From: Carpediemonas membranifera BICM
Lineage: Eukaryota; Protista; Fornicata
Direction of reading: 5' to 3'
NCBI GenBank assembly: GCA_019828565.1
Contig: JAHDYR010000032.1
Location: 1-64,000 of the forward strand
Length of the DNA stretch: 64,000 nt
Below, in pieces: positions 1-60,924 of the stretch. Position 1 is the first letter of the stretch; each line of letters begins with the position of its first letter. Made by a program: the position numbers and the translations under genes. The notes below the pieces were generated by a model. The model ran no database searches, had not been told where the DNA came from, and saw nothing but the letters and a program-made list of their open reading frames with translations.

Positions 1-776
1 CCTCGGCTGGGTGATCAGAGACGGCACCTACGACATTTCACCGGAGCGTGCCCAAGACGTTAGCGACCTGGTCCTTCCCAAATCCGTCAGGGGATGCAGG
101 GACTAGTCGGATTCCTCAATTATTTCAGGGACTTCGTGAACGACTTTGCCGTGATCGCCAAGCCGCTGACTGACGCAATGGCAGGCAAGATCCAGATCGG
201 CGGCGCACAACAGCAAGACGCGCTCGATCGCCTCAAGAAGGCACTCACCTCCAAGCATACCCTACAGCTGTTCGACGCAACCAAGGAGCATACTGTCATG
301 ACAGACGCATCCGGACTCGGATACGGCGCAGTGCTTTTGCAAGAAGGCAAGCCCGTGTGCTACATGAGTAAGGCGTTCAATGACGTGCAGTCGCGCTGGG
401 CCACGAACGAGAAGGAGGCTTATGCCATCGTCGCAGCCCTGCAGAAGTGGCGGAAGTTCCTGTCGTGGGGAAAGTTCACCCTGCTGACAGATCACCGCAA
501 TCTACTATTCATGTATCGCAGCGTCAACTCGAAGGTGAAGCGCTGGGCCGACGCGATAGCGGACCTGGATTTCGACATTCAACACATCCCGGGTCTAGAT
601 AACGGCGCAGCCGATGGCCTATCGAGAGTGTTCACAGTGAGACAAACAGCGTCGACGACCGATATTAAGACGGCGCATGAGACCGCTGGGGCACATCTAT
701 CGAGGAGGATGACCATAGAGCGACTGAGAGCCGACAATATGTCTGTATCACGTGCCGCAGTCGACGAGTGCCACGG
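1..776 (+). mobile_element. Ty3/gypsy pol fragment (RT C-terminus, RNase H, start of integrase Zn-binding domain), truncated at ~776
   Basis: ORF 94..786 has TDASG..YGAVL, EKEAYA, TDHRNL and NGAADGLSR RNase H motifs, then H..H..C. An upstream frame LGWVI..ISPER joins via an indel in the G run near 89-93. The sequence breaks off at VDECH. Confidence 0.9.
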
Positions 777-1267
777 TCTCTCGTGATGTGGTGGTGGACC
801 TCCTCAAGCGCGTGGTGATGGCAGGCCGACACCCAGCCATGTTCTCGCTGCTTATGGCGGCTGAGAACCGCGGTGCCTCGCGCCTGACCGCCACCCGCTC
901 CCGCGACTTCGTTCGGGCCTATTGGACCTGTGTCCGGCTTGAGCATCTCCCGGCTATGGAGCTTGCCATGAACAAGGAGCTGTTCACGCTCCAGCTCACG
1001 GACACGTCCGCCGCGTACGGTGTGGTGGAGGTCAAAGAGCACATCGAGCTCTACGAGAACGCCCGCCAGGAGGAGTCGTTCATCCTGCTCGTCCAGTTTT
1101 CGGGCTATCCGCTGCCGTCACTGACCTTCCTGACCCAGGATCTTTGCCGCACCATGCCTGTCACTCGTTATCTCAACGAGCATAACTTATGGCGTCGTGT
1201 TCGTCGGCGCTGGGAGCATGACGGCATCTTCTTTGAGCTTGGTGACAGCCTTGGTGCCATTGAATAA
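752..1267 (+). CDS. C-terminal half of the family A antisense accessory protein, with a chromo/chromoshadow-like C-terminus (5'-truncated at ~776)
   Basis: Aligns by eye with 37132..38253 (RVVMAG/RAVMLG, DFVRAYW/EFARQYF, TSAAYGV/TSAAFTV, VTRYLNEH/VAQFLTEH). Convergent with pol, 30 nt from the pol stop. Confidence 0.75.
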   Translation: MPQSTSATVSRDVVVDLLKRVVMAGRHPAMFSLLMAAENRGASRLTATRSRDFVRAYWTCVRLEHLPAMELAMNKELFTLQLTDTSAAYGVVEVKEHIELYENARQEESFILLVQFSGYPLPSLTFLTQDLCRTMPVTRYLNEHNLWRRVRRRWEHDGIFFELGDSLGAIE

Positions 1268-1297: not shown

Positions 1298-4200
1298 TTA
1301 CTTGGCCCTTCCCAGGAATACATCCAGTGCTTCACAACCCTTGACATTCCCATATGGTTCCCATGTGTCCTCTGACGGCTCATATCCCAGCCATCTAACC
1401 CGGAACTTCCTGTCTCTCATCCTGGCCTCACTCGTCGACTCTAGTATGGACTCGACCAGATATTCACCGAGCGTGACTGCCGCGAGTTCCTGAGCCCGTT
1501 GCTCGGACAACTCACCCATAAAGGCGCGAACTCTCTCCGAGGCGACTTGGAACTCCTTCTTTGTGTTGACATCCTTGACGACATAGCCCACCGTGAGGTT
1601 CTGCCTCACGATAGGACGCACTAGCTTCATAGGCCCTCGCCATCCTGACGCCAACTTGGACGGCGGTCCATTCGGGTACTTGACCAACACATAGTCGGAC
1701 GAGATAGGTGTCGTTGCTGACACTTTGTCTAGCGCATCTTGGTGCATGACCTTGATTCTCGCCTCTGCCAAGTCTCGGGCTAACTGAGCTGCTTGAACAT
1801 TACTGCTGGGCTGTCCAGCCATACTCTGGACGTCTGCCATCATCACGTCTGCCGGGACACGGAAATCGCTACCGAAGATGACCTCGGCCGGTGTTAAGCG
1901 TGTCGCGGTGTGGGGAGACGCGTTGACGATATACTGCGCGACAGGGAGGGAGTCTGACCACAACTCGCTCCGAAGCTGGTATTGCCTGTTGCGTAAAATG
2001 CGCTCAATGCGGCTGTTCGCCCGTTCCACAATGCCGTTTGACTGTGGATGGTACGGGGTGGTGACGTGAGTAGCAAACCCTACGCGCACCGATAGATCTG
2101 TGAATAGCTTGTTGACGAACTGCTTGCCACCGTCTGTCTGTAGAACTCTGGGCACGCCGTACCGGAGAATCCATCCGTTGACGAAGGCAGTCACAGCTTC
2201 GTCCGCCCTTGTGGACTTGAGTGGGACGAGCTCGGTCCACCGCGAGGCCATATCAATAATAACTAAGATGAACTTGTACCCGCGAGACTCTGGCAGGGGG
2301 CCAATAGTATCCATGGCTACCCGCTGGAACGGTCGCAGGCTCGCCGTGTGGAGGTACGGTCTGGACGCCTCGGCCGGCTTGGCGGTAAGTTGGCACACGG
2401 GGCAACGATCCATGACCCGCGCTACCCTATCCACTGGAGCCCGGAGCCCGTTAGATCTCAGCCACTCTACCGTCGTATAAACCGGGAGGTGGGCCTGGCC
2501 GTGCATATGAGCTGCCTGGATCTCGTCATCGGTAGCTGTTGCCTGTCTGGCAGTTGCGGAGAAGACTCGACTCAGCCCGTCCGCCGCTCCGTTGTCAACC
2601 CCGGCCACATGCTTCACTGTGAAGTCTAGGTCTGCGATTGACTCGTACCAACGCTGGACTTTTTGCGTTAGACGATCGTGACATGTAGACCAGGTTCCGG
2701 TGGTCAGTGAGGAGAGTAAACGACGTCCAGCACAGGAAACGGCGCCACCTCTGGAGGGCGGTGACAATCGCATACGCTTCCTGTTCGATCGTGCTCCAAC
2801 GCGTCTGCACATCTGAGAACGCGTGGGACATATAACACACCGGCTTGCCGTCCTGGAGGAGAACACCCCCGATCCCGAGATCAGACGCGTCTGTCATGAC
2901 CACATGATCCTTCGAAACGTCAAAGTGCTCGAGTGCCGGTGCGTGGCAGAGGCGGTCCTTAACCTTGGCCAGCGCCTCTGCCTGAGGTAATCCGTCCGGA
3001 GCCTCCTTGCCGCTTGCCGCCCGGGCTAACGGTCGGATAAGCTCGGAGAAGTTAGGAACAAAGTCTCTCATAAAGTTGAGGAATCCCATAAGGGCCTGCG
3101 TGGCCTTCTTCGTCTTCGGTAGCCGCAGGCCTTCTACATCGCGGATCCTGTCTGGAGCAATCCGGAAACCCGAGCCGGACACAACCCATCCTAGGAACTC
3201 CACTTCGGCTAGGCCGAAATGCGACTTCTCCTTGTTCAACGATAGCTTGAGCTCGTCACATCGGCGGAGCACCTTAGCGAGGTTGGCCAGATATTCCTGC
3301 TCCGAGCGTCCAAAGATGATAATGTCATCTATATATATAATGCAGGCGTCGCCTAAGAGGTCCTGGAACCCGCGCTCAATCGCGTACTGAAAGTGCGCGC
3401 CAGCGTTCTTCAGGCCGAACGGCATTCCGGTGTATTGGAACTTCCCACGGGGGGTCATAAACGCCGTGTATTGCCTAGAACGCTCGGTCAGCTCGACCTG
3501 GTGATACCCTTTCGAGAGGTCGAGAGTGGCGAAGACCTTGGCACCAGCAAGCCTGGTCAAGCACGTGTTAACCTCGGGGATCGGATAGTCGAATGGCGTG
3601 GTCAAATCATTGATTCTGCGGAAGTCTACGACCATCCTGGTCTTGTCCTTGCCCTTGGGGACGAGCAATGCTGGAGAAGAGTATGGCGAGAAGCTGGCCT
3701 CGATGTATTTCTTCGACAGTAGTTCGTTGACGTGCTCGTCGAACAGGCCCTGCTTCTGGTACGGTATGTAATTGGATCTCGTGGCGACGACGCGGTCCTC
3801 CTTGAGTACGAGGTCGTATGGCTCTAATGCTGAGAACCCTTCTCGAGCATCAAAGCAATGAGCATAAGCTGCGAGGATGCGGTCATGAGTGAGAGTGTAG
3901 TCCGAAGACAGAGTATACGCCTGGAGCGGCTCAGGCTCTGGCACGAAAGGCTCCAAGGCGTCTTCATTGTCAGACTGAGACGGTTCACACAAGCTGGGGA
4001 GAATACCCCACTCGACCATGGTCTGATATGACAAGAGGAGATCATAAGCACAGTCAACCCCATACGCGGAGACTGTGGTGGATAGACCTTTCGGGGTGAA
4101 AGGTGACTTACACATCTTCAACGGCACCTCATAACACGTATCAGTCTCGATCGTTCCACCCGGAGTCTTGATCTTAATGGGTGCAGCGAGCTTCGTCGGA

Positions 4201-5262: not shown

Positions 5263-5282
5263 TAGTTTGGAAGTAAGCTTAC

Positions 5283-5590: not shown

Positions 5591-5660
5591 CGACACGAAG
5601 TTCGCCGTGGCGCCGGTGTCTACCAGTGCGCGGTTGGTTGACACCTCATGACCGCGAGGG
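5591..5660 (-). pseudogene. Gypsy aspartic protease fragment
   Basis: Minus strand translates RALVDTGATANFVS, compare family C RALFDTGATANFIS. Confidence 0.7.
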
Positions 5661-5661
5661 A

Positions 5662-5751
5662 TCATACGTATATTTATACAGTCAAGGAGTTTCTACTCGA
5701 CACACTTGTGTCGAGTCTTCTTCTTTATAAACTGTTCTCTTAAGCCATACA
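5662..5751 (+). repeat. Partial LTR related to families A/B
   Basis: ACTCGACAC-ACTT-GTGTCGAGT hairpin followed by TTCTTTATAAACTGTTCTC...ACA, matching the sense-strand A/B LTR 3' half. Confidence 0.65.
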
Positions 5752-5831
5752 GGCCACAAGGTGAGAATCGTCGGACGGGACATATTCAGCATCGCTGTTC
5801 TCGTCGGTTTCGTCCACAAGCCAAGCTTGCA

Positions 5832-11000: not shown

Positions 11001-12522
11001 GAGACCGCGGACTTGATGTCCCGCATCGACGCACTAGCCGTGGAGCTTACAGAGTGGAACGATGAGATTAGTTCTGCTCAAAAGAACACCTCCCAAGAGG
11101 AGAAGGATTCTTGGCGACGCGCTGGTGCCACCATCAACAACAACACCTGGGTGAAGGATGCCGTCCCCGTCCTCCCCAAAGACGCCAGAGCGCTACGACA
11201 CAAGCTGATCAAAGCCGCCCACAGCAGACATGGCGGCAGAGCTGATACGCTTCAACGGGTAGCCGAGGTCGCCTGGTGGCCCGGCCGCGCTAGAGACGTG
11301 AGCAACTTCGTCCAGCAGTGCCCCACCTGTGCCAAGACAAGGCTCAAGCAGTTCTTGTCAGCCCCAGAGGGGCGCACCATTCAAGACTCGTTCTGGAACA
11401 CCATAGCCATCGACACGGTGGGACCGCTGTCGGAGGACGCGTATGGGGCCAAGTACATCTACGTCATCACGGACCTCTACACACGCTACACAGAGCTGCA
11501 TGCGGCAACCGCAAACAATGCCCAGAGCGCGGTCGACGCCCTATGGCTGGCCGTCACCCGCCACGGCATCCCAAGCTACATCAAGAGTGACAACGGAACA
11601 GAGTATGTTAATCAGGTCGTGAGCCTCCTGATTGAACAGCTCGGAGCGCACCACCAGCGGACGTTGCCATACCATCCTCAAAGTAACGGGGTGGTCGAGC
11701 GCCGGAACGCGGAAGTCGGACGTCACCTCAGATGGCTGGCGCTGGCTATGGACGGCTATGGAGAGTGGAGCCAACTCCTCCCCTTCGTCCAGCACATCTT
11801 GAACACATCAACACACACGAAGCTCGGCGTATCGCCGCACGAGGTCGTCTACGGCCGCCGAGCAGAGATCGGTCTGGTCAGAAATCAACAAGCGGCGCTA
11901 GAGAGACCCGATATCGCGCAATATCTCGATCGACTAGCTCACGTCCAGGACAATCTGGACAAGGTTATAACTCAGTGCAACAAGAGGGAGGAGAGGCTGG
12001 GCCCTGCCCCAACACGCCCAGCTATTGGGTCAGGTGACCTAGTGTTCATCAAACCAGCTGTCAAGCACAAGCTGCACGGCCTACTCGGCCCATTCAAGGT
12101 TCACGCAATCCACAGCAACAACGCTGTTGAAGTAGCGTCCCTACTCAATGACGAGAGGCAATTCACGCATCTGGACAAGATTGCCCTCTGCCCTGACATC
12201 TCCCTGGAGTTGGCGAGACAGTATGCCGCCTCCGACGACGAGAGATACATTGTAGAACAAGTACTTGAGCACAACACTCGAGACCACACCCTACTCATTA
12301 AGTGGGAGGGCTACACCCAGACGACATGGGAACCACTGACACGCGACAATGCCAAGGTCGGCCCAATTTCCGACTACCTCCGGCAACATAGGATTCGATG
12401 GAAGCCGTTGAACACCTCGGAGCGGGGGAGGAGCAGGATGTCGTAGACTCCTTATCATTTAATCAGTTGATGATTACGACACCATTGTGTCGAGATTAAA
12501 ATGTTTCCCACCGACAACGTCA
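8085..12522 (+). mobile_element. Intact chromovirus-type gypsy element, family D copy 1
   Basis: Identical 84-bp LTRs 8085-8168 and 12439-12522; TSD CGAG (8081-8084, 12523-12526); PPT 12424-12438. Confidence 0.97.
8184..12446 (+). CDS. Family D single-ORF Gag-Pol, 1420 aa
   Basis: CRLCGGEHWDSDC knuckle, VDTGA protease, YIDD RT, TDASD RNase H, H..H..CPTC and SDNG integrase, GPF motif, C-terminal chromodomain. The stop codon lies inside the 3' LTR. Confidence 0.97.
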   Translation: MVQLEIDYNFPRMSAKELDPRGVKKFKAEVRVFRARIPDYATGLLLSEELQEELEATLGVSAESATSNQVYEFLESEATPRSLLELKRQLRAVLCPKLGTEGYPSNLSVVRQLGADFVELADYALRSAAKEGSESLAALFGKEKRKMARLLEDGTAEVVEEEALLTAADVAAKRAAAFDKTARKIFLEKIKPKSLYERIELESQFVKPSSLKDLINIARTVAKLEDASNSTTTTASSTSAGASQANDHREHRQAPPQAAKTTTAAQSSRKQRTRPCRLCGGEHWDSDCPKLGGRTRESGQLRPNPPKKTPFEAHAAEEGDAEALHTEAVINHSSYSATVDTGAGVSFISSRLLHTLRERDNSIKPKKCQPFIVSLAGGSTVKGNEMVELRVELPHLTTRPIVKNISFRVLPGPVEKLLLGVDQLRALGFISDRGIFLPFPSPEGPEKEDDILPYNHSYLSAEHADNRSIKTEIDKIEFGENETGAAAREICAAYEEVFEEELPTEGSKLEPMSIDFISDDWVNEFNQKPRHLSEEKREKVRQEVTQMHLQHIIRHSHGPYASPVVVVSNGHKGSTKIRLCVDYTVINRHTKRDRYPLPDIRAYLREAAGAEYYASLDLRQGYYQVKVKEEDIPKTAFITPDAYEEFERLPFGLCNAPSHFQRCMEKAFAKELHHGVAIYIDDVMIYGRTKEEFLERLHNVLDICKEQRLRLKAPKCKIGVEEVEMLGFICNTEGLKLSKERVEGIHALKTPTTKKGLLSMCGSLNYVAKFVPDASRVLSPINDLRSATDGADFIWSSIHDEALDEFKRRLEKYLVLVHPDLNKKWVLQTDASDIGFGGILTQEGDDGRQEIVSFFSGSFNKTQTRWSTYEQELFAIIHCLTRPDLGQLFRIHPNLTIQTDHKNLVYLDQKKLKNDKILRWSLLLSDYQYTIEHIAGLDNETADLMSRIDALAVELTEWNDEISSAQKNTSQEEKDSWRRAGATINNNTWVKDAVPVLPKDARALRHKLIKAAHSRHGGRADTLQRVAEVAWWPGRARDVSNFVQQCPTCAKTRLKQFLSAPEGRTIQDSFWNTIAIDTVGPLSEDAYGAKYIYVITDLYTRYTELHAATANNAQSAVDALWLAVTRHGIPSYIKSDNGTEYVNQVVSLLIEQLGAHHQRTLPYHPQSNGVVERRNAEVGRHLRWLALAMDGYGEWSQLLPFVQHILNTSTHTKLGVSPHEVVYGRRAEIGLVRNQQAALERPDIAQYLDRLAHVQDNLDKVITQCNKREERLGPAPTRPAIGSGDLVFIKPAVKHKLHGLLGPFKVHAIHSNNAVEVASLLNDERQFTHLDKIALCPDISLELARQYAASDDERYIVEQVLEHNTRDHTLLIKWEGYTQTTWEPLTRDNAKVGPISDYLRQHRIRWKPLNTSERGRSRMS

Positions 12523-32536: not shown

Positions 32537-35461
32537 GTGGAGTCCGCCCGGAGGCCGGAGTCCACGCCCGCACCCGCGCCCATGCCCGCACCCGCGCCTG
32601 TGCCCACGCCTACGCACGCGCCCACGCCCGCACTTACGCCCGCGGGAAACAATGGCGCGCCAGGAAGCCCAGCGGCAGAGGCACCAGCCTCCGCTCAGCG
32701 AGCACGGAGACCGGTCCGAGCGAGGAAGGTCAAGCTCCCGTACACCCCACCCTCGCCCCGCCGAAGAGCTCCGCGGGCGGTTGGCATCCCGGTCGCCCGG
32801 TTGACATCGAGGGCAGCAGAGGGCGACCAGGCACACGCAGCCCGTGTCGAGCTTGGGGCGTTCCTGACCCCATCGCCCAGGCCAGACCTCCACCGCATGT
32901 CCCGCACATCCAGCCCAACGTCGGATTACGAGTCCTCGTGGGGCGGCGAAGGTGAGGAGACAGACTCCGAGGCCACGGTGATAGACCAGAGCGCATCATC
33001 AGAGGACCCTGACGATTATACGGAGGAATATGAGGACCCCCAAGCCTCCCGGTCTGGTCCTGACGGAGAGGCACACACGGGCGGGAACCACACTGAAATG
33101 CCGGAGGAGCTTGAGTTAAGCCCCGATGAAAGTGACAGCGGCGATGACGGCGGACAGGAGTATTACCCTACTGACGACGCCCCCTCAGAAACCGATGAGG
33201 TGAGCGTAACAGAGCCTGACGCTGCAGGCTCGGCCACCGAGGCCCCAACCTTCATCCTTGGCTCTGACGAAGACTACGAGTCCTTGTCGGGAGGCGGGGC
33301 AGAGGGGTCCAGCGATGACGAGCCCGACTTCACCTCCGCGACATGCCCCATACGCCTGCCGGGCGTACCAGACGCCGCGACCGGCAGGGACCTCCGACAC
33401 CTGCTGGTGGCTGCGACGGCGGACCAGATTAGCAGATACTGCGGGTGCCAGGAGTTACCACGCATCTGCAGAGAATGCGGGATGGTCTTCCGCCATGGCG
33501 GCCACGCAATCTGGCGCCGGCACGTCAATGTGGATCAATGTGACGACAGCAGGCTCGCCAACCGCATCACAGCAGCGTCCATACAGCTTGAGATGGCGGC
33601 GAGAGTCGGACACCGAGCCCCACATATGGCCCAGACCCACCTGCCCCAGAGACCACGCGGCGTCGTCCCCCACAGCGAGCTCGCACCAGCAGGCACAGCG
33701 CTGGCCGGGAGATCCCTGGGTAGAGCACGCATGCTCGGGAGCATGAACCTGTCTGCAGACAGCAGGGCAGTCATCACCTCGAAATTGAGTCAGCTCAGAG
33801 CGTTCATGGCGGGACACCCACAGGAGGGCGTCGACCGCGCGATGGAGACGGTCGCAGTGCTCATCAGGTGCCTGCCACACAGCGGGAAGTTCGCTGCGGT
33901 CGGCTTCCGAAATGCCATCAGACGGGTAATCCGCAACATCCCTGCCACCCCCCCGCACCGCCGCATCCCGGCAGAGGAGACAGGTTGAGAAGGCAGTGGA
34001 CTCTTTCATGCTTGGACAGGTCGGAAAATCACGGAAGCTTCTGGCACCACGCCATGAGTCGGCATGGTCGGAGGACCAAATAGTGGCGGAGGTCCACAGG
34101 CTCTTCCCGGCAGACCGTGCTGATGAGATCGTACCCCTCCCACGCACAACGGTGGCTCGAGCGGAGTCCCTGAAATGGGCCAGCCCACCGCCCACACTAC
34201 CGAGGGACCTGCCGACCCGAGAATGCGAGGAGATCATGACCGGCCTGGACGGCACCAAAGCGGCGGGACTGTCAGGATGGTCGAACAAACACATCTTACA
34301 GCTCCTGGGCCGGCATCTCGCCACCGACACGAGGGAGGAACGCCCGACGTCTGAGGCCAGCCGACTCCAACAAATCGGTAGTCAGCGCAATGACCGAGAT
34401 TGTCTCCTGCATCGTGAGGGGTGAGTCGTCCTGCAGACCGTTGACGCAGGCATACCTCTCGATGCTGCCAAAGCCGAACGGTAGCCTGAGGCCAATAGGG
34501 GTGAACGAACCGTTCTACGTGATCGCAGGCAAATACCTCGCTAAGCTTGCTCTCGGGCACCTGAAGCCAGACGACAGCGGGGACGACCCGGCCGGGGCAC
34601 TGCCGGACTGGCTGCCGGAACAATATGGCCTGGGCGGCCGGAGCGACGTGGAGAAACTGATCGACCGTGTCGACAAGGCATACCGGGCTGGGAAGTATAT
34701 CGTCATAGCGGACTTCACGAACGCCTTCAACGAAGCGAACCGTCACACGATGAAGGCCATGGTTCATGAGTACGCGCCGGCCCTTACTGACTTTGTCGAC
34801 CAGTTCTACGACGACCCGCGCCTCTACTACGAGACATACGGCGCGGCTGGCACAACCGCGCGGTGGGTGGACGTCAAACGCGGGACCATCCAAGGAGACG
34901 CTCTTGGCCCGCTGCTGTTCTCCTTCGTCATGCGCTGCATACTCGACGAGCTCACCGAGGCGGCTCCAAATGAACGCTTTGCGTACCTGGATGATGTCGC
35001 CAGTATCCACAGCACGGCTGGCGACGCCACGGCTGAGATCGCCACGCTCACGCGCATCGCGTCGAAGTATGGTCTCCGCCTGAACATGGCGAAGACGGTG
35101 ATCCTCGCCAACCCGGACGTACACGACGCAGGACACCCATTCGTACATGCGTGGGAATACCTCGGGGTGACCATCGGCCCGACCACGAGCCGCGTTACAG
35201 CGGTGCAGGTTACGGCTGAGAAGGTTATTGACGAGCTCAGCTGGCTGTGTGGAATTATCGAGCAGTCGACGGGGCACGCGAAAAACCAGGTGTCCTGGAT
35301 GTGTCTGCACATCATCCGCAAATGCATCAGCGCGGACCTGAATTTCATGTTCAGGACGAACGCACCGAATGTAGCCATCGCTGAGAGGTTAGAAGCCAGC
35401 CTCATCGAGGTGGCGAGGGTCATAGCGAACTCCCCAGCCGGCTGGGAGAGCGCGAGGTTAG
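32537..35461 (+). CDS. CRE-like element ORF: acidic region, Zn finger (CREC..H), reverse transcriptase; frameshifts near 33950 and 34350; continues at 54987-55638 and 60314-60842
   Basis: ORFs 32537..33988, 33996..34424, 34390..35466, 55049..55672 and 60324..60842. Confidence 0.85.
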
Positions 35462-37131
35462 TGTAGACCTTCGGGTCGATTAGTTTTATCCAATTTTGTG
35501 TCCCGGGTCAAACCCTATAAATCCTCTCTCTCCTCTCATCGCTACAGTAATTACTGGTACCTAGTAAGATGAATCAGCTCCAGTCAATTGACCTGTTTAT
35601 GGCCCCCTTCCTCACCAAGACTACTCAGAAAGAGTGGGAGGAATTCCGCGAGAACTATTACGCGTACCGTGCCAAAGGCGGTGCTATTCCTATTAAGCAC
35701 TTGATTGGCCGTACGGTATGGCAAATCTTCGCTCTCCGTGACCCCGCTCTCAAAGAATCCCTTCCTGATCCCGCTCGCAACGCCCTTGTTGCTGAGGGAG
35801 GACGATGAGAGCGACGAAGACTTCGAAGACGCCACGGATGATGACACCGAGGACGAAGCACCTATTCCTGATCCTCTTCCCGTTTTCCCCGAGGACGCCG
35901 AATCCTCGCGCATCCTACGCCGCATCAACGTTCTCTTCCAGCCCATCGACCGCAGAGAAGCCCTTGACCGCTTCGAGCGGATTACCTGCCACTCTCGTGG
36001 TCCCCTTCAGGACAACGTTCTCCGTTACGTCCATGCATATCAGACGCAGCTTGAGAACTGCGGCGATGTTCGCCCTTCAATCAAGCAACTCGTCCGCTGT
36101 TTCGTGCAGCACATCCAGCCGGAGCGCCTCCGCGATCGCGTCTTAACCTACCAGGATCGCCGGGACCTAGACGCCACTTTCCGCGCCGCCATAGAGCAGG
36201 CTCGGCACGTGGAACAGGTCACCCGCGAGGGGGACCGCCTACGCGCCGCTGAACGCCCGGGCCCTGTGGGTTCGTGAGAACAAAGCTTTACAAAGAATAG
36301 AGCTCGACACCCATGTGTCGAGCTGGACGACTCAAGACTATTAAATAATCTATTGATGAACCAACACTTCCCTCCCATGCTCCGGTAGAGCATCAAAAAA
36401 CTCAACACTATTATGAAGGGTGTGCTAGGTGCTTGGTCCGGGTGAATTGCCCAGATACAAGCTCCAGTAACCGTCGCTTCCATGGGGACTCGCCATGGAG
36501 CCGGAGTTGGCAATGGACTAAGCCCTATTGCCTGAACCGTTGTGAGCTCGGGACTTTCGAGTTCATCGGATACCCGTTGACCAGACTGGCTATAAAAACC
36601 CTGTGTCTTATGCCCGGCGTGATGTCCAGTCACGTTTCTGAGATATGCTTACCTCACTACCAAATCTAAATTACCTAATATTATCTGATCAAATCTTGCG
36701 TGGTACCACTGTATTAGCGCGCTATGTTATGGGTATCCTTACCTGGGGTCCTGCCCCTCTTGAAAGTCTTTGAAACATACCCGACGATTCTGAAAGGGTC
36801 AAATGGCGCACTTTTAGGTGCCATCGATGTCCCCATGTCAATTCTTACCAGAGGTTGGTTACATTCCGCCTAATCTTACACGGCGTTCAAAAAACGGGTT
36901 AAGAGGCTCCAATTCCTTCTCGTTCGCGAGATATGGCACTTTTTCGTTTTGCACCGCCGGAAACACTTTTTGGATCCCGAAAACGCGGCTATATTGAATA
37001 ACAACATCAGTTCCACCATGTAAACAACTCTATGTTCCACTTCTGAACAGCATTGTTGCGTAACCATTGCGTTTCATCGATTTCGCATTTTTTGCTTTCT
37101 GGAAAGTCGACTTTCTAGACGATCACAGCTC

Positions 37132-38253
37132 ATGGGGGATTTCGACGCCGCTGTGGAAACTATTCTAAATCGTCTTACGACTAACACTTCGAGAATGCAA
37201 TTTTGCCGTCTCCTCCGTCGCCATATCTCTGAAACTGGTTCCTACCTCGAGCTGTTCACCCCTTACCAGCCGCGACGTGCTCCTAGGCGCCAAAACGTCC
37301 CTAATGTCCCAGAGGAACTTGCTGGCGCCGTAACCAGTTCTGCATCTGACAGCGAGAGCGTTAACGCCGTCGACCTACGCTACCTTCCGGCTTCTCCTGA
37401 CCCAACCGACAATGAGTCTGACTCCGAGTCGGACGACACCCCGCCATCCCTCTCTGGCTACGTGGAACTCGTCACCCGGCAGGCAGTCAGCTACTACTGG
37501 AACTCTCCCCGGACTGAGTTACTGCTGCTCACCGACAACCGGCTGCACTCTTACACCCGCGCTTCCGCTGCAGTGCACTCGCATGACGCCGGCGCTGATC
37601 TCTGCCGTGACGCTATCGTACTCCAGGCGATGTCGGCTTACCTCTCCATACGTCGCGATTCGACTGATGCTGCCATCGTTTCAGCCTACCTCACTGCTGT
37701 TCGAGACAAACGCGCGTATGTGCCGAACGCGCTCAAGCAAGAGATCGAGAATCGCTCTGGCCTCAGCATCGTCACCATGCGTCCTCATGTCTTCCGTGCT
37801 GTCATGCTCGGCCACGATGTCAACCTATATTTTGTGCTGCACATGGGAGAGGCCCTCGGTATCCTCACCCGCGCTGATTGCGCTGAGTTCGCTCGTCAGT
37901 ACTTCGCTCGCATGCGTAGCGGCGCTTCCTTCGACGACGCAGAGTTCAGTCTTCTGTCAGGCTTCATGCCGGTTACTGCTGACCGCGCCCCGTCGCTGAC
38001 TCTGCAAGACATGACTTCTGCAGCCTTCACGGTCTCGCGTGTTTGGCATTATCGTTTTGACGCCCCTGGTCTTCTGCGCCTGCATGTCAGTTATGAGGAA
38101 TGCCCCAATGTGAGCAGCATTGCCATCGCTACTCGGCGCATGCAGACTCACCCTGCCGTTGCCCAGTTCCTCACTGAGCATCTGTCTTACGAGTCTTACC
38201 TCGCCGACGACGTTGCCCTCGATGGTAACGTCCGTTGTGACACTTGCGAATAA
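37132..38253 (+). CDS. Family B antisense accessory protein, 373 aa, with a chromo/chromoshadow-like C-terminal domain
   Basis: Intact ATG-to-TAA ORF inside the LTRs, not overlapping pol; homologous to 752..1267. Confidence 0.85.
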   Translation: MGDFDAAVETILNRLTTNTSRMQFCRLLRRHISETGSYLELFTPYQPRRAPRRQNVPNVPEELAGAVTSSASDSESVNAVDLRYLPASPDPTDNESDSESDDTPPSLSGYVELVTRQAVSYYWNSPRTELLLLTDNRLHSYTRASAAVHSHDAGADLCRDAIVLQAMSAYLSIRRDSTDAAIVSAYLTAVRDKRAYVPNALKQEIENRSGLSIVTMRPHVFRAVMLGHDVNLYFVLHMGEALGILTRADCAEFARQYFARMRSGASFDDAEFSLLSGFMPVTADRAPSLTLQDMTSAAFTVSRVWHYRFDAPGLLRLHVSYEECPNVSSIAIATRRMQTHPAVAQFLTEHLSYESYLADDVALDGNVRCDTCE

Positions 38254-38278
38254 ACAGTTTCTGATGCTTGGGGGCCAT

Positions 38279-41200
38279 TTATTCGGCCTTCCCCAGATAT
38301 ATATCCAACGCTTCGCATCCCTTAACGTTCTGGTACGGCTCCCACGTATCTTCCGAAGGCTCGTACCCTGCCCATCGGACGTGGAACTGCCGATCGCTGA
38401 GTCTGCGCTCATGCGTTGCTTCGTATATCGACTCCACGACATACTCGCCGATCGTCACTGCTGCTAGCTCTTGGGCATGTTGCATGGACAGCTCGCCTGA
38501 AAATGGTCTGACCCTCTCGGACGCGACCTGGAATTCGGTCCTCGTATTGACATCTCTAACCCAGTAACCAACAGGAAAGTCATTCCTCATGATAGGCTGG
38601 ATCAGTTGCATGGGGCCTCGCCACCCTGCAGCCAACTTTGATGGTGGCCCATTCGGGTATTTGACCAATACAAACTCAGACGTAATTGGTTCAGGAGGGG
38701 GCAGCTTGCTGAGAGCGTCAGCGTGCATTGCCTTAATACGTGCTTCAGCGAGCTCTCGAGCGAGTTTGGCAGCAGCTACGTTGCTCGCTGGTTGGCTGAC
38801 CGCCTTCTCACCCAGTTCTTTGACGATTAGCATGTCGGCCGGTACGCGCAGATCACTACCAAAAATCACCTCTGCTGGGGTTAAACGCGTTGCTGAGTGT
38901 GGTGTCGCGTTGACAATGTACTGTGCGACTGGCAACGACTCCGACCACAGCTCCGACCTCAGCTCGTACTGCCGCGCCCTCAGAATACGCTCGACTCTGC
39001 TGTTCGCTCGTTCGACCACTCCATTTGACTGTGGATGATATGGAGTGGTTGTATGGATTGAAAAGCCAACTCGGACGGACAAGTCCTTGAACAGCTTGTT
39101 GACAAACTGCTTGCCTCCGTCTGTTTGGAGGACTCGAGGGACTCCATACCTGAGTATCCACTGGTCAGCAAATGCTCTGACAGCTTCGTCGGCTCTCGTT
39201 GTCTTCAGCGGAATGAGCTCGGTCCACCTCGAAGCCATATCGACTACTACTAAAATGAACTTGTATCCGAGCGACTCGGGCAACGGACCGATAGTGTCCA
39301 TTGCTACCTTCATGAACGGCCTGAGTCCGGCTGTATGTAAGTATGCCCTGGCGGCTTCAGCTGGTTTTGCTGTGAGTTGACATACCGGACATCTGTCGAT
39401 CACCCTCGCCACCTGATCCACGGGCGCCCTCTTGCCATGTGTCCTCAAGAATTGTATCGTGGTATGCAGTGGCAGGTGAGCTTGCCCGTGTCTGTGTGCC
39501 TCAGCTATCTCCGTCTCAGACGCCACTGGCAACCGATCTGCCGATGCCGCAAACACGCGACTGAGACCATCGGCTGCACTGTTATCCACTCCGGCCACAT
39601 GTTTGATCGTGAAATCAAGATCAGATATTGATTCGTACCACCGTTGAACCTTGGAGTTGGAAGAACGCGACATAAACACAAGATTGCGATGATCAGTCAG
39701 CAATGTGAATGGTGTCCAACACAAGAACCTGCGCCACCTCTGCAACGCGGAAACGATTGCATACGCCTCCTGTTCAATTGTGCTCCATCTCGTCTGCACA
39801 TCGTTGAAAGACTTGGACATGTATGACACCGGCTTACCGTCTTGTAGCAACACTCCGCCAATTCCAAGGTCTGACGCGTCAGTCATGACGACGTGCTCAC
39901 GGGTAACATCGAAGTGTTCGAGGGCGGGAGCCTGACACAGCAGATCTTTGACCTGCGCCAAAGCCTCGACCTGATCGCTGCCGTCGGGAGGTGCCTTGCC
40001 ACACGCGGCTTGAGCTAAAGGGTGCACGATCCTCGAAAAACCTGGCACAAAATCTCTCATGAAGTTCAAGAATCCCATTAGGGCTTGAGCGGCCTTCTTC
40101 GTCTTCGGGACACGCAGCGTCTCAACATCCCGAATGCGGTCTGGCGCCATTCTAAATCCTGTACCCGACACCACCCAGCCTAAGAACTCGACTTCTGCGA
40201 GTCCAAAGTGTGACTTCTCCTTGTTGAGGCTGAGTTTCAACTCTTCGGCCCTCGCCAACACCTTGTTCAAGTTGGACAAGTACTCTTGCTCTGTGCGGCC
40301 GAAAATTATAATGTCGTCAATATATATGATACACGCGGTACCAAGTAGATCGTGGAATCCCCGTTCAATTGCAAACTGGAAATGCGCCCCAGCGTTTTTT
40401 CAATCCAAACGGCATGCCCGTATACTGGAACTTGCCTCGTGGGGTCTGGAACGCAGTGTATTGTCTCGACCTTTCGGACAACTTGACTTGATGATAACCC
40501 TTCGAAAGGTCAATCGTGGCGAAGATCTTAGCTCCTGCCAACCGTGCGAGGCACGCTTGAACCTCTGGGATCGGGTAATCAAACGGCTCAGTCAGGTCGT
40601 TGATCCTTCTGAAATCGACAACCATACGAGTTCTGTCTCGGCCCTTCGGGACGAGGAGAGCTGGGGACGAGTACGGAGAGAAACTCGCCTCAATATACTT
40701 CTTGGCTAACAGCTCCCGGACGTGCTCATCAAACAGACCCTGCTTCTGGTGAGGGATGTAATTTGACCTGGACGCTACTACTCGGTCCTCCTTCAAGATC
40801 AGGTCATAAGGCTCTAAGGCAGAAAACCCCTCACGCTCCTCGAAGCAACGGCTGAACTTGGCGATGATTCGCGCATGCATCGCTGTAAAATCTGTTGACA
40901 TAGTGTAGGACTGCATCGCGTCCATTGGGGGGACGGACGGTTCCATATCGTCAGAGTCCCGGCTCGCTTGAGATTCCGCGACACTGGGCAGGATGCCCCA
41001 CTCAACCATCGTTGGGTACGACAATAGAAGGTCGTAGATGCATTCAACTCCGTATGCGGCGACAGTAGTCGACAGTGCCTTTGGAGTGAAAGGTGACTTA
41101 TGCATGAGAAGGGGAATCTCATAGCAAACGTCGGACTCAATAGATCCCCCTGGAGTCTTGATGACGATAGGTTGACTGAGCTTCGTCGGAATAAGTTCAG

Positions 41201-42281
41201 CAGCGGTTGCCGACTGGGGGTTCACCAAGCAAATATCCGCCCCGCAGTCGAAAAGTACACGCTCCCATTGCACACTGTGATCATTACCGACCGGAACCTC
41301 TGCTGTTACTATCGGGAGCGCGTTGCTGTGTGTCTGACTCAACGATGTCAGGACATGAGCGGGTGCACGAGAAAAGGATGAACAAGCCTGGGGGTTTACT
41401 GAAGTACCCCGACAGAACTTGTCTTGATGTCCCTGCTTACCGCACTTGCTGCAGACAGTCTTCGGGTTCCGACACTGGCGCGATGTGTGACCGGACTTGC
41501 CGCAGTTGTAGCACACGATGGTACGGCTGGTGCTCTGATGATCGGTGCTTGAGCCGGTCTGCTGACTTCTCTGCATTTCAGACTGGGCTCCCCGGTACTG
41601 GTGCTTGCCATGAGACTGGTGCTCACCCGGGTGAGGCGGGCCGCCCTGTCGGCGCAGACCTCGAGAATGGCTTGCGCGCTGGTCCTTAGGAGGGCGGTTT
41701 CGAGGCTGAGAATCGGACTTGATGGTCCTGGAAGTAATCATCGCAGCCTCTTGGAGACGCTTGCACGTCTGGAGAGCGACCTGGATGGTGCTGTTAAGGT
41801 CAAGCCCTGTAGCCGCCTCCTTGACCTCCCTACGGAGGTCCTCGTCCTGGATTCCCTTCACGAACATGCTGCGCATCACGGCGTCGGAGAAAGAGGGAGC
41901 CAAGACGGCCTTGCGGCTGATGAATCTGTCGGCATAGAGTGAGAGACGTCCCACGTCAATACCCTGGGTCGTTAGCTGGAAAAGACGGCGCTCTAGGATC
42001 GGATCAGTGGGCTTAATTGCGTTAGCAATCGCTCTGAAAACGAGGTCCTCTCTCTCATGTTTCTTACGCTTCTCGCCCGTCACTGTGTTGTGCTTCGCGC
42101 TCTTGTACGTCTTGGCTACGTCTACACCAACTGCTGCACAGTATGAGGTGACAGCCGGACCCAAACGCTTGATAAGTCGGCGTTTTCCGCCCGTTCGGAC
42201 ATGGCGATCGAGTTTCTCCTTAAACGAAAGCAGAGCATTAATCTCTGGTTGAGTACATAACGGACCCTTGTCCTCAGTCAT
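38279..42281 (-). CDS. Family B Gag-Pol with chromodomain; one +1 indel in the T run at ~40395-40400
   Basis: ORFs 40365..42281 and 38279..40279; all gypsy domains present. Confidence 0.94.
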
Positions 42282-45200
42282 TGTAAGTAACGTTACTGTG
42301 GGTTCGTGAGAACAAAGCTTTACAAAGAATAGAGCTCGACACCCATGTGTCGAGCTGGACGACTCAAGACTATTAAATAATCTATTGATGAACCAACAGC
42401 CCCAACGCCCACTCCGCGGCTCCGCGCCCTACGTGTTCCTTCTGCGGCAAGGTCGGCCATGACATAGACCACTGTTTCGCTAAGCGTGACAAGAAGCCCC
42501 GTAATAAACGGGCATCCTATTTTGAGCTGTTGACGATAGATCCCTTGCCTGGTCCAGAGAGAGTGACACCGCAGGCCGTATTCTCGGTGTCGACCCCAGG
42601 GATGCCCTGTGTCCGCGCGCTATTTGACACAGGCGCCACAGCGAATTTTATTAGCCGCGAGCTCCTGGAGCAGCTCAAACCAATCTCGGTACGGCCCACG
42701 ACTCGCAAGGTCCAGTTTGGCAGTGGCCAAATAATGAAAGCCGCACAGGAAGCCATACTGGAGCTCGACCTTGGAGTTTGTAAGACATCGGGGCGCCAAC
42801 TCACGGCGTTGGCCCCCTCCTAGTTTTGGATCAGCTATCCCATCCACTTGTACTTGGCTATCCACTTCTTAACGAGCTAGGCGTCGTTCGCTTTGATATG
42901 GGCGAACCAGACGTTTCTGACACTGACAGCGAGGTGGACGTGGACCTCAACGTCATAGAGACCGACGATAACCAGGAGCCCCAGTGCCTGGTGCCCGAGC
43001 TAGCTTCAGAAGTCGAGGCCCTTCAAAGGCGCTTTCCTGAGCTGTTCGGCGGTCTGACAGCCACGCCAGCCAAGGTCACACCCTTCGACATTGTCCTCGA
43101 GGAAGGAATGACCACCAACTGCCCACCATACCGCTACTCAGCCGCTGTCCTCGAAGAAATTCGCCGGCAGACTGAGGAGCAGGAGGCAACTGGAATCATT
43201 CAACCCTCAGAGTCGCAGTTCAACTCCCCAATCGTTGCCGTCACCAAGCGTGACGGGACAATAAGACTGTGCCTTGACTTCCGCCGGGTCAACGAGATTA
43301 CCCGACCTGACGAGCACCCCCTGCCTATCATTGATGACCTCGTGGGAACCCTGGAAGGAAAGCAGTTTTTCGCTGCAATAGACTTGTCCAAGGCCTTCCT
43401 TCAAATCCCACTCACTGATACAGCAAGAACCATTACTGCATTTGTTGCTGCCGGGAAGAAATACGAGTACTTACGGATGCCTTTCGGCCTCCGGAACGCC
43501 GCAATACATTGCCAGAGATGCCTAGAGGAAGCCCTGGGTCCCGCTCTCTACATAAGAGCGCTGGTCTACATTGATGACATCGTTGTCTTCGGTAACGACC
43601 AAGATGAGTTCATCAGCAATCTGAGGGATGTGTTAGAACGGCTCGACGCCGCCAACCTTCGGATCAACGCCAAGAAGACCATCCTCCATACTGTCAACAT
43701 CCCTAGATTATCTTTGCTAAACCCTAGATTATCTTCGACCTCAAAACGCTAGATAATCTACAATTTCTTGCTCAGAAATGAAGTATTCATTAAATTTAAG
43801 CTATTTAGAGATAAACGAAGGTCTTCTTTAGAGTCCATATGATGTACGTAGAGCATGGAAAGAAGCTCTGGCTCTGACTCCTTGCCTGGTTTGAGCATTT
43901 CGCCGTGCAGGTTAAGACGAAACGATAAAATGGACAATAACAGAAAATCTAACAGGTAGATTCACTACGATAGTGATTATGTGAGTAGTTGAAAGGAGGT
44001 ACATATGCGCATAATCACTTTCAGAGTGAATCTACCTGTTAGATTTTGAGATATGGTCGATTTCTTGTTTTTTGACTTGGCTAGAGTCGAATTGAAGAAA
44101 AGGAGAGGCTATTACTCAGGGAATATTGCTCGTCAAAGAAAAGCAAGCAAGGCCGCGAGGTATGGCCACCCGACCTACAAGATGGGCTGGGTGTCATCGC
44201 GTAAGGACGACCGGTCGTGCGCGGTCAACGCTGACAAAACTTAGCGATTCAGAGAAATAAATGGCGCCACCGTATTCAGCACAAGGCAGTGAACTCAGCT
44301 ATATGTTTTTTTCTCAGTATATTTACCCAGCGGCTGATCCCACAGTTTAAGGACGGGTATTAGCCTGCACTTTGCATGAAAAAATTATGCCTGAACACGA
44401 CCAATTATCCAAAACACAGCATTTAGCATGCAACAGGAGCTGGAAGCAGCTGCAACATCTATTCTAGGCCATTCCACAACCATTACGCAAGAAATTGACG
44501 CAATAGAGGCCATTCAGTCCCATTACTTCATAGATTCACGCTTGAACGATATTACGAGCCTTATCAGGCGAGAAACAAGAAAGCTGAACGCGATTGGTGA
44601 CTCCTTTCTCGCTGAGACATATGCAGCATACTGACAGCCACGACACGCTGTTCAAGCAGATTTAAGGGAGCGCCATCACCAAACACGTAAATAGACCTGT
44701 ATACGACAACCAGAGACGGACGTATGAGTCAGAACGGTGTGCTACCGGAATACGCAGGGTGTTTTGTGCCCTGTTGATTCCAGGAGCACGCTGCTCTGGG
44801 CCACGTGAGATACCGCGAGACTAAATCCGATCTTTACTATCTCTTACATATGCAAATATCATGAGTGTGTCCCTGCTCGTGAATGGGAACATCCAGCCAG
44901 TCTGAGTCAAAGCTACGGTCTGCTTTCGACAAGACAGTGCGCCATAGGCCGTTGACTAAACACCATGTGCAGCTTTTGGCACTCAGTCGACCTCTGTTTG
45001 AAGGTCAAGTGGATGGTCTATGGAAGAAGGTGTTGAGGTAGGGCTCGTGTTTGACGGGCAATGAGGAAGGAGAGATCTCACTGGATGTGTGCATCTGCGG
45101 CAAGTATGAGTAAAGAATGAAAACATGATTGGTAGTTATAGATCGCGAGAATAGGCATTCTCATCTGCATTGCGGAGAAAAGGAGTTGATGTTGTATTAA

Positions 45201-48922: not shown

Positions 48923-49404
48923 GAGTAAAGGATTGATATACCGACCGTATCGCTTATGTTTATGTGACCTTGAGGTTGATTCGCGGTTTGTAGGTGGGTA
49001 TGGTGCTATATTACTCAGCCTGCTGTATATGTCTAGTCTACAGCCTGTATGCAGCTGTCTGTGGTGGTAAATATCGTCGGCTGGCCGAGAAAGCATAAAC
49101 TGCACACTTGTGCATTCGAGTACAGTGACGAAATCCCTCAATATGCTACCAGCAGTGCACTTAATAACCAATATCAACGCCGAAACGCGTGTAGTTTGGA
49201 GCCGTCCAGTTTTTTGCGCTAGTAATGCCTCCAAAACCCTTTTAATCAACATCATCTTCTGTTATCGACCATGTCAACGAGAATGATCAGAATAAACGAC
49301 GATTTGGCACTGAATGAACCTTGTAATGAGACTGGTCAAGCCTGTGGACACGAAAACAGCTCTCAATAACAACATCAAGAAGGCAAGACATGAAGATGGT
49401 TTAA

Positions 49405-49880
49405 ATGGAGGAGAGCCCCAGGGGAAGAGAGCCGGGGGGAAGAGCGCCCGGGGGAAGAGAGCCCCAGGAGAGCCCCCGGGGAAGAGCGCCCGGAGGAAGA
49501 GAGCCCAGGGGAAGAGCCCGGAGGGGAAGAGAGCTCAGGAGCAGGGAAGAGCTCAGAGGGAAAGAGCACGGGCAGAAAGAGCTCGAGGGAAGCAAAGGCT
49601 CGAGGAAAATCAAAAGCGGCATCGAGGAAATCGAGGCATCGGGAAGAAATCAGGCGCAAATCAGGGCTCAGGCATCAAAAAGGCGAAATCAGGACAGAAA
49701 AGGCAGCTCGAAGAGCTCAGAAAGGCAGAACTCAGGGAAGAGCCCTCGGAGGAAAGAGCAGAGGCCCAGGAAGAGCTCAGGAAGAGCATCAGAGGGAAAG
49801 AGCCCAGGGGAAGAGCGCCCGGAGGAAGAGAGCCCCAGGAGAGCCCCAGGGGAAGAGAGCCGGGGGAAGAGCCCCAGGAG
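49405..49880. repeat. Purine-rich minisatellite (~14-15 bp units, GGGGAAGAGAGCCC)
   Basis: Directly visible; degenerate in the middle. Confidence 0.85.
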
Positions 49881-50330
49881 AGCCACCAGGGAGGAGACAC
49901 GGGGAGAAAGCATGTGGGGCCCCGGAAAACGCCAGCACCAGCGCAAGTAAGCTATTCTATTACAAAAATGCTTCACTTGAGCTGGTACTAGAGCGTTTTC
50001 GGGGGCCCTTGCCCATCTTTCGTTGTCTGATTTTTTCGTGCAGAATTCAAACGAGAGCCGCCTGGAAGAGGCTGAGCAGGGAGAGCTAGGCACCTGCGGC
50101 ACCACTCGTCTGGCCCAGCTCCCGGGGGTATGCTCCAGGAAAATTCTGGTGCAGATTTGGGGGAGCAGAAATGTCGACGAACCCCGAAAACGCCATAACC
50201 GGCACCAGTGAGCGCATCTTCGTTGATGAAGCTCATTGGTGTTGGCATTATGGCGTTTTCGGGGTTCGATACTGTACTCGTGGCCTGAGGCGCCCGCACA
50301 GCGCCACCACGCCAGCAGCAGCGCCCTCAC

Positions 50331-50735
50331 ATGCCTGATGCCCTCATCCTGGCGCCCTCATCCTGGCGCACTCATCCCTGGCGCCTCATCCCTGGCGCCC
50401 TCATCCATGGCGCCTCATCCCTGGCGCCCTCATCCCTGGCGCCTCATGCCTGGCGCCCTCATCCATGGCGCCTCATCCCTGGCGCCCTCATCCTGGCGCC
50501 CTCATCCTGGCGCACTCATCCCTGGCGCCTCATCCCTGGCGCCCTCATCCATGGCGCCTCATCCCTGGCGCCCTCATCCCTGGCGCCTCATGCCTGGCGC
50601 CCTCATCCATGGCGCCTCATCCCTGGCGCCCTCATCCCTGGCGCCTCATCCCTGGCGCCCTAATCCATGGCGCCTCATCCCTGGCGCCTCATCCCTGGCG
50701 CCCTCATCCATGGCGCCTCATTTCTGGCGCCCTCA
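50331..50735. repeat. Minisatellite of 14-15 bp units (CCTCATCCCTGGCG) with a 144-bp higher-order duplication
   Basis: Directly visible; blocks starting at 50341 and 50485 are identical. Confidence 0.92.
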
Positions 50736-60199: not shown

Positions 60200-60924
60200 C
60201 TTACTAGGTACCAGTAATTACTGTAGCGATGAGAGGAGAGAGAGAGGATTTATAGGGTTTGACCCGGGACACAAAATTGGATAAAACTAATCGACCCGAA
60301 GGTCTACAGTTGCATACGACGAAATGGAACGCCTGCAGAAAGCAAACAGGCCTATTCCGCAAGCAATCGCTGATCAGGCAAGTAAGATCACGCAGGCACG
60401 CGCAGATATCCTGATTAATGAGCCTCTGCTCCGGAACGGCCGTCCTCTAGTGATTGAGGTCACAGTCGGCAAGTCTGACTCGGACTCATTCATCCAGAAG
60501 AAGAAGGACCAGTACGCCGACTACAATGTTGACGTCATCGTCGTCGCACTCACTCCAACCGGCAGCCACATCGAGTCAGCCGCCAGGAGTCTGGTTGAAA
60601 TCGGACAGGAAATCTGCACGATCACTGGCGCAGAATGCTTTACTGACCGCCGAGCTCGGTCGGTTCTCGCGATCGCACTGATGGGCTGGCTACTGAAGAA
60701 GTCATTCGAGCTCCGCAAGGCACACCGCCTGCTCCATCTGGCCACGTCCGTGATCAATCCTCCACATCTCCCCCCACCCCCTCCCACCGCCGCCATCCAG
60801 CGGAGTCAGCGTGGAGGCGCTTCGGCGCCCCGCAATGGCTGAATAATGGTATGTACATGTTTACATACAATCGAGTAAATTCGTAAATTCATAAATGGAG
60901 TCGTGTTATAAGTGATCGCTCGAG

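Follow-up and report, generated by a model that had tools for sequence, protein, structure and literature searches.

The stretch of DNA considered here (hereafter the window) comprises positions 1 to 64,000 of contig JAHDYR010000032.1 (assembly GCA_019828565.1) from the free-living metamonad protist Carpediemonas membranifera BICM, and it contains a long terminal repeat (LTR) retrotransposon, termed element B, that carries between pol and its 3' LTR a gene for a protein of 373 amino acids (aa) running opposite to gag and pol. This antisense accessory open reading frame (ORF; 37132..38253, plus strand; protein P0001) is the main focus of the present analysis, in which the end of its product is predicted to form a degenerate chromodomain, additional to the one that the element carries on its integrase.

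The carrier is a young Ty3/gypsy LTR retrotransposon on the minus strand, inserted within the gag of an LTR element of another family (family C), with two LTRs, a target-site duplication and a polypurine tract all present. Its 5' LTR (42297..42398, minus strand) is identical to the 3' LTR (36265..36366, minus strand; 102 bp, TGT...ACA), and the duplicated target site, GCCC, stands on the left at 36261..36264 and on the right at 42399..42402, while the uninterrupted family C copy has a single GCCC. The identity of the LTRs, together with the intact duplication, indicates that the antisense ORF travelled with a recent insertion. The domain order is gag-protease-reverse transcriptase (RT)-RNase H-integrase, with a Ty3-like RT: gag, including zinc knuckles, the protease and the first part of RT are encoded at 40365..42281 (minus strand), and the second part of RT, RNase H, integrase and a chromodomain at 38279..40399 (minus strand), the single frame break of RT at an A run near 40390 being attributable to a slip in the assembly or to a mutation of recent date. 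The polypurine tract adjoins the 3' LTR at 36367..36376 (minus strand). Among solved structures, 4ol8 and the Ty3-G polyprotein come nearest to the RT of the related family A (E about 1e-63). The hallmark of chromoviruses, a PF00385 chromodomain at the integrase C-terminus, is found above the cut-off in families A and B, and in element B (38297..38443, minus strand; 35.8 bits, cut-off 25.1) it shows the full Y/W/Y aromatic cage; an earlier note on this DNA, made from the letters alone, had likewise placed a chromodomain on the integrase. Scans for related elements returned four distant loci (L001-L004), none of them in prokaryote genomes and none with a match to the accessory gene, and among the 19 matches listed by a pol search for neighbouring annotated C. 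membranifera pol genes there was no such gene. With regard to a nested insertion as the origin of the accessory cassette, no flanking repeat longer than 9 nt was found.

The earlier note had also described an intact 373-aa gene on the opposite strand between pol and the 3' LTR, with ~750 bp of non-coding DNA upstream, and both statements hold. The ORF runs unbroken from ATG to TAA, is letter-for-letter identical to NCBI record J8273_7566 of C. membranifera, and begins 765 nt away from the 3' LTR; the non-coding spacer in front of it (36377..37131, plus strand), which presumably holds an antisense promoter, has no ATG ORF longer than 63 aa on either strand and no match elsewhere within the window. 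The stop-free frame around the ORF spans 409 codons, a length of 373 was reached in 0/2000 base shuffles of 36380-38278, and the codon periodicity of base composition gives p 3e-16 for B and 1e-9 for its counterpart in family A. Thus, the frame is more than a chance occurrence, and it is almost certainly a real, element-borne gene. The fraction of A at third codon positions is 0.09 in B and 0.04 in A, compared with 0.08-0.15 in four host ORFs and 0.19-0.22 in pol. A host-versus-pol test of synonymous codons, with leave-one-out ranges, left B unplaced, as its value of -0.008 falls inside both the host range (-0.008 to 0.049) and the pol range (-0.099 to 0.005), so that host-like codon use can be called suggestive at most. 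As claimed previously, both accessory ORFs stop inside a GAATAAA, with the pol stop 25 nt away in B and 30 nt away in A. The pol stop of B also lies in GAATAAA, and the convergent stops at 38247-38284 form a 7-nt inverted repeat, the pol side in A reading AAGTAAA; a role of GAATAAA as a poly(A) signal found no support, a stop inside AATAAA occurring at 1/13 listed non-retroelement ORF ends. One DNA run yielded a single 179-nt contig over 38209-38387, which is not evidence on expression.

Family A holds a counterpart in the same slot, next to a pol end with integrase and chromodomain at 1298..2893 (minus strand; PF00385 33.2 bits), and an antisense ORF is therefore present in both of the A/B-type elements of the window that have a pol end. 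The end of this ORF had been placed correctly in the earlier coordinates of 752..1267, but not its start, since tblastn assigns the DNA as far as about base 768 to pol sequence from a third element, and a full-length paralogue shows similarity from 803 onwards. What is left is a 5'-truncated remnant (770..1267, plus strand), cut at the junction with the other element's pol, whose chromodomain-like part lies at about 998-1213 (plus strand). The two ORFs had been called clearly homologous; their homology stands by way of paralogues and of the shared slot, but it is not clear from direct comparison, where the best BLASTP E is 7.1, the Smith-Waterman score is reached by 88/1000 shuffles and the glocal score by 34-64/3000. 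Comparison of the A and B subfamilies with hhalign gave E 5.7e-4 and a probability of 29%, colinear over 125 columns, and because of this paralogue-based link and the shared position the sequences are very probably homologous, though remotely. DNA similarity between A and B begins exactly at the ORF stops (blastn), and the accessory proteins have diverged far faster (33/144 identical residues, 22.9%) than pol (360/524, 68.7%).

When a profile of these two sequences was compared with 1.84 billion representatives, six proteins were found at E<=0.001, five of which are from C. membranifera, namely B itself and four paralogues, and no credible relative outside this species appeared. The sixth (P0006, a Legionella repeat protein, E 2.8e-7) is spurious, as it contains six repeated stretches and gives a pairwise E of 0.24. 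A word-based search with B returned itself alone among 7606 candidates, and one with the A ORF nothing among 74. PHROGs, NCBIfam, Pfam and PDB sequence searches likewise yielded nothing meaningful for the family. The accessory proteins form a fast-evolving C. membranifera family, with members that vary widely in architecture: P0003 (J8273_6937) shares 36% identity with the A ORF, P0004 and P0005 share 31-34% with B, and P0007 aligns with the first 164 aa of B and, covering aa 1-164 alone, was excluded from C-terminal alignments. In P0005 (J8273_1499), an N-terminal part of about aa 23-265 is joined to the helical and chromodomain-like module. Its 10 nearest Atlas models all fall in exonuclease-family clusters, at low TM scores of 0.17-0.35, and it contains what we take to be a DEDD-like motif, which makes a DEDD-exonuclease-like N-terminus a lead to follow. 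A HxAxxD word, presumably of the ExoIII type, stands at a matching place in B and P0007, and in view of these two features a fusion of a nuclease with a chromodomain may be the ancestor of the family.

Along the 373 residues of B, four parts can be distinguished ahead of the end of the protein proper. An N-terminal helix pair (aa 1-35; 37132..37236, plus strand) is predicted with low confidence (pLDDT 45-60, where pLDDT is the predicted local distance difference test) and has a similar start in P0007. It is followed by an acidic linker rich in Ser and Pro (aa 44-106; 37261..37449, plus strand; 12 D/E and 20 S/P of 63 residues), which includes a short Arg cluster and is predicted to be without regular structure, and then by a conserved four-helix domain (aa 198-263; 37723..37920, plus strand) at pLDDT about 70, for which the best matches are generic bundles (Z 5.5). 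The fourth part, a degenerate chromodomain-like domain (aa 294-353; 38011..38190, plus strand), is predicted to have three strands followed by a short helix and then a C-terminal one, with F299, Y321 and C324 at the cage positions. The underlying AlphaFold model covers aa 190-373 with five sequences and has a mean pLDDT of 62, the four-helix domain being followed by a strand-strand-strand-helix-helix unit at about 65-74, while single-sequence prediction of the whole protein gave a pLDDT of 36.

In a Foldseek search with this model, the best compact match was the Swi6 chromoshadow domain (rank 2, E 0.33, probability 0.72), and the other compact matches comprised the Chp2 chromoshadow domain and several chromodomains. 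A second look with VIA placed chromo or chromoshadow chains at all of ranks 2-23 (Z 3.0-4.1, root mean square deviation (rmsd) 2.7-4.2, 47-58 residues), and 34/50 rows were chromo-type chains, seven of them chromoshadow domains; this count includes rows for New1 and cpSRP43, which we assume to bear chromodomains. The chromodomain of CBX3 (Z 4.1, rmsd 2.8, 50 residues) and the chromoshadow domain of Drosophila HP1a (Z 3.9, rmsd 3.3, 56 residues) illustrate that the two domain types tie structurally against the B model, both weakly. A wide VIA search was dominated by generic helical bundles, with a best Z of 5.5 and a lone chromo row at rank 48, and it included the N-terminal helical domain of DNMT1 (Z 5.2, rmsd 3.3, 69 residues). 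The viral structure library held no match for the B model. Prediction of a homodimer of aa 289-367 gave a score of 0.00 with the alignment unused and the fold uncertain, and it is counted neither way. With good confidence, the last ~60 aa of the accessory protein can be predicted to adopt a chromo fold, and the earlier assignment of a chromo-fold pattern to the C-termini, whose quoted peptides are present in the translations of both ORFs, agrees with the AlphaFold and VIA results and with the profile matches to integrase chromodomains described next.

At the level of sequence, the evidence for this fold is mixed, yet it points one way. A profile built from accessory proteins only was scanned over 1285 six-frame segments from the window and the four distant loci, and its best four non-self matches, at E 1.8e-4 to 4.3e-3, all fell on the C-terminal ends of pol in families C and E, the next match having an E of 0.56. 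A profile restricted to the C-terminal part matched family E at E 1.2e-4 and family C at 0.72, with the best reversed decoy at 0.11. The closest sequence relative found is thus the integrase chromodomain of LTR family E, a comparator located outside element B (12225..12410, plus strand), which belongs to a family with 84-bp LTRs and tandem copies 5.25 kb apart, a second copy of the chromodomain lying near 17500. That the comparator is itself a chromodomain follows from its PF00385 match at E 5.8e-5, just under the cut-off, missed in the full-length Pfam scan and found when the domain was isolated, and from its scores against HP1alpha, 21.4 bits with the chromodomain versus -0.4 bits with the chromoshadow domain. 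Against this domain, the A ORF scores 66 with 33% identity (0/500 shuffles), P0003 gives 0/500 and P0005 3/500, and neither B nor P0004 shows anything significant. The chromo assignment of B consequently relies on its homology to the other members and on the structure model. A profile comparison with twelve chromodomains gave a score reached in 0/200 column shuffles, and the A subfamily alone scored 22.0, above all 106 control windows. The match to family C takes in some 25 further residues on its upstream side, within the tail of the integrase, which hints that the pol end of another element was captured in reverse. The accessory domain is predicted to descend from a retroelement integrase chromodomain, perhaps through an ancient reverse capture of another element's pol tail.

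Several results weigh against this assignment. Pfam, PDB-sequence and Atlas searches gave no chromo-family match for B or A, the isolated domains of both had no Pfam match at E<=10, and aa 285-373 of B gave no usable match in the ESM Atlas. At E<=10, the C-terminal profile failed to pick up the integrase chromodomains that elements A and B themselves carry; B alone reached at best 16/500 shuffles over nine chromodomains, and its subfamily an hhalign probability of 6%. Comparison with the first three chromodomains of the window was not significant (44/150 shuffles), and the one with twelve fails realistic controls (14.75 versus 11.8 reversed, the best pol window scoring 15.84), while the 48.6% probability obtained relies on family E, which was added after the profile scan had found it. 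On the structural side, Foldseek returned no match for the B model at E<=0.001, all VIA Z values fall short of 8, the threshold of the tool, and pLDDT in the remaining four models is 43-51. B, moreover, lacks an aromatic residue at cage position 3, and the TWEP motif of chromodomains is gone from the accessory domain, a hydrophobic strand standing in its place as in chromoshadow domains.

These points bear on two other readings of the C-terminus. One is that the model was drawn to a common beta-beta-beta-alpha arrangement and that the protein is some other accessory factor, for instance a nucleic-acid-binding remnant of a DEDD-type nuclease fusion. The uniform weakness of the fold scores, with Tudor-like and SAWADEE domains also present at Z 2.7-2.9, the lack of a direct sequence signal in B and the exonuclease-family neighbours of the P0005 N-terminus would all be in keeping with it; however, an unbiased profile scan picked out integrase chromodomains, in agreement with the model and ahead of the best reversed decoy, and this reading appears rather improbable. 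The other is the proposal of the earlier note that the element encodes an HP1-type dimerisation module, a chromoshadow-like C-terminus that could sequester or recruit silencing factors, here taken to be HP1 or ones of the PxVxL type. It finds some backing in the Swi6 and Chp2 chromoshadow domains at Foldseek ranks 2-4, in the chromoshadow rows obtained with VIA, HP1a among them, in the chromoshadow-style strand that replaces TWEP, and in the L and Y that B carries at the positions of L168 and W170 of HP1beta. In HP1beta, I161 and L168 are required for dimerisation and W170 for PxVxL binding (PMC9841413; here, as for the other papers cited, reference is made to the parts of the text that were available).

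The positions in question were compared in five members, with the register of the last helix taken from the HP1alpha chromoshadow sequence and the VIA aligned ranges, assuming no gap. The I161 equivalent, two residues ahead of the helix aromatic, is A, T, T, K and K, hence non-matching in 5/5 members (D, D and S in three integrase chromodomains), L168 is kept in 1/5, and the W170 equivalent (Y, W, W, L and V) is aromatic in 3/5; a Trp after the last helix also occurs in the ordinary chromodomain of family E. The spacing from the hydrophobic residue of the short helix to the helix aromatic is 9 in 5/5 members, the same as in the HP1 chromodomain, versus 11 in the chromoshadow domain, whose short helix is longer. 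All five members have aromatic residues at the first two cage positions, and two have one at position 3, with F, Y and C in B, Y, F and Y in A, three tyrosines in P0003 and two of three aromatics in P0004 and P0005, so that the absence of a complete cage claimed earlier is true of B but not of A or P0003. Because the I161 site is polar or non-matching, the spacing is of the chromodomain type and cage aromatics are partly kept, a degenerate integrase-type chromodomain is the likely identity of the C-terminal domain. The claim of an HP1-type dimerisation module was not borne out at the I161 site, in the spacing or in the closest relative, an LTR integrase chromodomain, and sequestration or recruitment of silencing factors by a dimerising chromoshadow domain now seems most unlikely. 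With the HP1 and Swi6 chromoshadow domains, the accessory domain shares the fold class, the structural tie, the hydrophobic third strand and the post-helix aromatic of three members, and it differs from them in the features just listed and in the absence of a Pfam match (PF01393 being, we presume, the chromoshadow family).

As for function, it is possible, if short of probable, that the free chromodomain product of the antisense gene is a chromatin-binding adaptor or decoy that keeps copies of the element transcribed. In such a scheme, the 765-nt spacer would drive an antisense transcript, as has been reported for maize Grande (PMC7264820), and the protein would enter the nucleus and dock on chromatin through its chromodomain, binding methyl-lysine tails, something likelier in A-type members, whose cage has all three aromatics, than in B. 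There, it could compete with host readers while its helical and acidic regions recruit other factors or block them. Given a real gene, a chromo fold and a domain of the chromodomain type, an anti-silencing role would stand at about even chances. Three considerations make counter-silencing preferable to targeting: a chromodomain with a full cage is already present on the integrase, a promoter of its own would permit production of the protein while the LTR is repressed, and fast divergence fits a conflict with the host. On the other side of the balance, our search found no literature on HP1 or H3K9 methylation in C. membranifera, and the searched supplements of PMC8516963 hold no HP1 entry.

Two further explanations compete with the adaptor or decoy at this level. 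The accessory protein might instead be a cofactor of integration or of the particle, which adds a second chromatin-reading specificity to the pre-integration complex and steers insertion to repeat-rich regions, in line with its resemblance to integrase chromodomains, which are assumed to give a targeting preference (PMC6317226), and with the insertion of element B inside another LTR element. The integrase, however, has its own full-cage chromodomain, and no accessory ORF is present in families C and E, the longest stop-free frame in the family C gap being 102 codons and the family E pol running into the LTR, yet both families are located in the same clusters; such a cofactor is quite doubtful. 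Alternatively, the ORF could be a passenger, that is, a host family specific to this lineage, or the decayed remains of another element's pol, that was captured once and has at most an effect as antisense RNA. Its third-position A is host-like and unlike that of pol, four other paralogues are annotated as genes, and the architecture of the family varies widely, all of which would suit a passenger. Against this, the frame stayed open and in place while identity between the two families fell to 69% for pol and 23% for the accessory protein, and the two-sequence profile found no orthologue outside C. membranifera, unlike what is expected of an ordinary conserved host gene, so that a mere passenger is considered unlikely.

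With the adaptor or decoy retained as the working proposal, the gene can be compared with known systems. Antisense ORFs located between pol and the 3' LTR (aORF-3R) have been described as brtn of Boty from Botrytis and Sclerotinia, gene23 of maize Grande, the TRP28 ORFs of Silene Retand, and in rice RIRE2 and PvRetro13 (PMC7264820, PMC11963269), and further papers deal with such plant and fungal ORFs of unexplained function (PMC4408406, PMC6317226, PMC8365987). ORF B agrees with the definition of an aORF-3R, being long, opposite in direction to gag-pol and located between pol and the 3' LTR, and the likeness extends, as far as the available texts go, to the slot and orientation, to a spacer that possibly holds an antisense promoter, to conservation across element families and to an unexplained function for which nuclear roles have been proposed. 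The known examples carry TRP28, plant mobile or SMC domains, no chromodomain being named in the available texts; the host here, in contrast, belongs to the metamonad protists, and the sequence searches linked the accessory protein to none of the known aORF-3R proteins. Since such ORFs are known in plants and fungi, the layout of element B's gene is not new. Boty, too, has a chromodomain. What appears new is the second, free chromodomain on an antisense accessory gene, as our literature search, with subscription papers mostly outside it, brought up no account either of this gene or of any chromodomain encoded in an ORF of its own.

The integrase chromodomains of chromoviruses (types I and II; PMC6317226) share the pattern and spacing of the accessory domain, those of families E and C being closest, and type II shows a comparable partial loss of the cage, but according to the available text it loses position 1 and usually position 3, whereas B retains positions 1 and 2 and loses 3. 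The difference from all of them is that the domain here belongs to an antisense protein of its own, while the integrase keeps a chromodomain as well, and that it has lost TWEP. The nearest functional parallels are mobile elements with chromatin-acting or nuclease modules, such as the DAM-LTR and EpiLTR elements with epigenetic cargo (bioRxiv 10.64898/2026.05.21.726589), the VANDAL anti-silencing proteins cited in the same preprint, and bdelloid LTR elements with a DEDDy ORF3 (PMC5408684). Unlike DAM-LTR and EpiLTR as described in the available text, element B has no methyltransferase, but a predicted reader-like domain on an antisense gene.

Antisense accessory genes are widespread among LTR retrotransposons, and the available parts of the reviews call both their function and their origin unexplained; the gene of element B offers a recognisable module together with a candidate origin, a retroelement integrase chromodomain. 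If the protein does bind chromatin, antisense genes would be tied to chromatin control, and it would become apparent how elements can assemble new accessory genes out of one another's components; its binding specificity would also report on the histone marks of Carpediemonas, an organism reported to be without ORC and Cdc6 and for which alternative heterochromatin mechanisms have been suggested (PMC8516963). More broadly, a protist chromovirus lineage might have turned a duplicated integrase chromodomain into a free, separately expressed decoy reader of histone marks that counters host silencing, diversified in an arms race and in one version fused to a DEDD-type nuclease, a scenario that as a whole we hold to be speculative and somewhat doubtful. 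The reach of these considerations is limited by an accessory family known so far from one species.

Other features of the window were noted along the way. In 4/4 LTR families examined, the primer-binding position is occupied by a perfect 10-12-nt palindrome that coincides with the end of the 5' LTR or adjoins it: at 42286-42297 in element B (12 nt, minus strand, overlapping the LTR end), at about 5273-5284 in A, at about 8170-8179 in E, and at about 35545-35556 and near 60213-60224 in family C. The gag ATG lies 15-25 nt beyond the palindrome, no tRNA-type TGG start is found in A, B or E, and the LTR contains no Tf1-type complement; palindromes without a tRNA-type or Tf1-type match suggest an unusual priming mode, e.g., priming by a second RNA copy. 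A related hairpin core is common to the LTRs of A, B and E (36301-36324, 42333-42356, 5316-5339 and 8123-8140), and an LTR-like stretch at about 5650-5758 has the same hairpin in opposite orientation. Beside the 5' LTR of family A there are two ORFs, 6479-6883 and 5832-6389 (both minus strand), the end of the former recalling what we take to be the start of a SET domain, with no Pfam match. An ORF for a non-LTR-type reverse transcriptase (RVT_1) at 34240-35466 (plus strand) is cut on its 3' side by a family C LTR, and the region 49400-50800 holds purine-rich repeats and a 14/15-nt tandem array.

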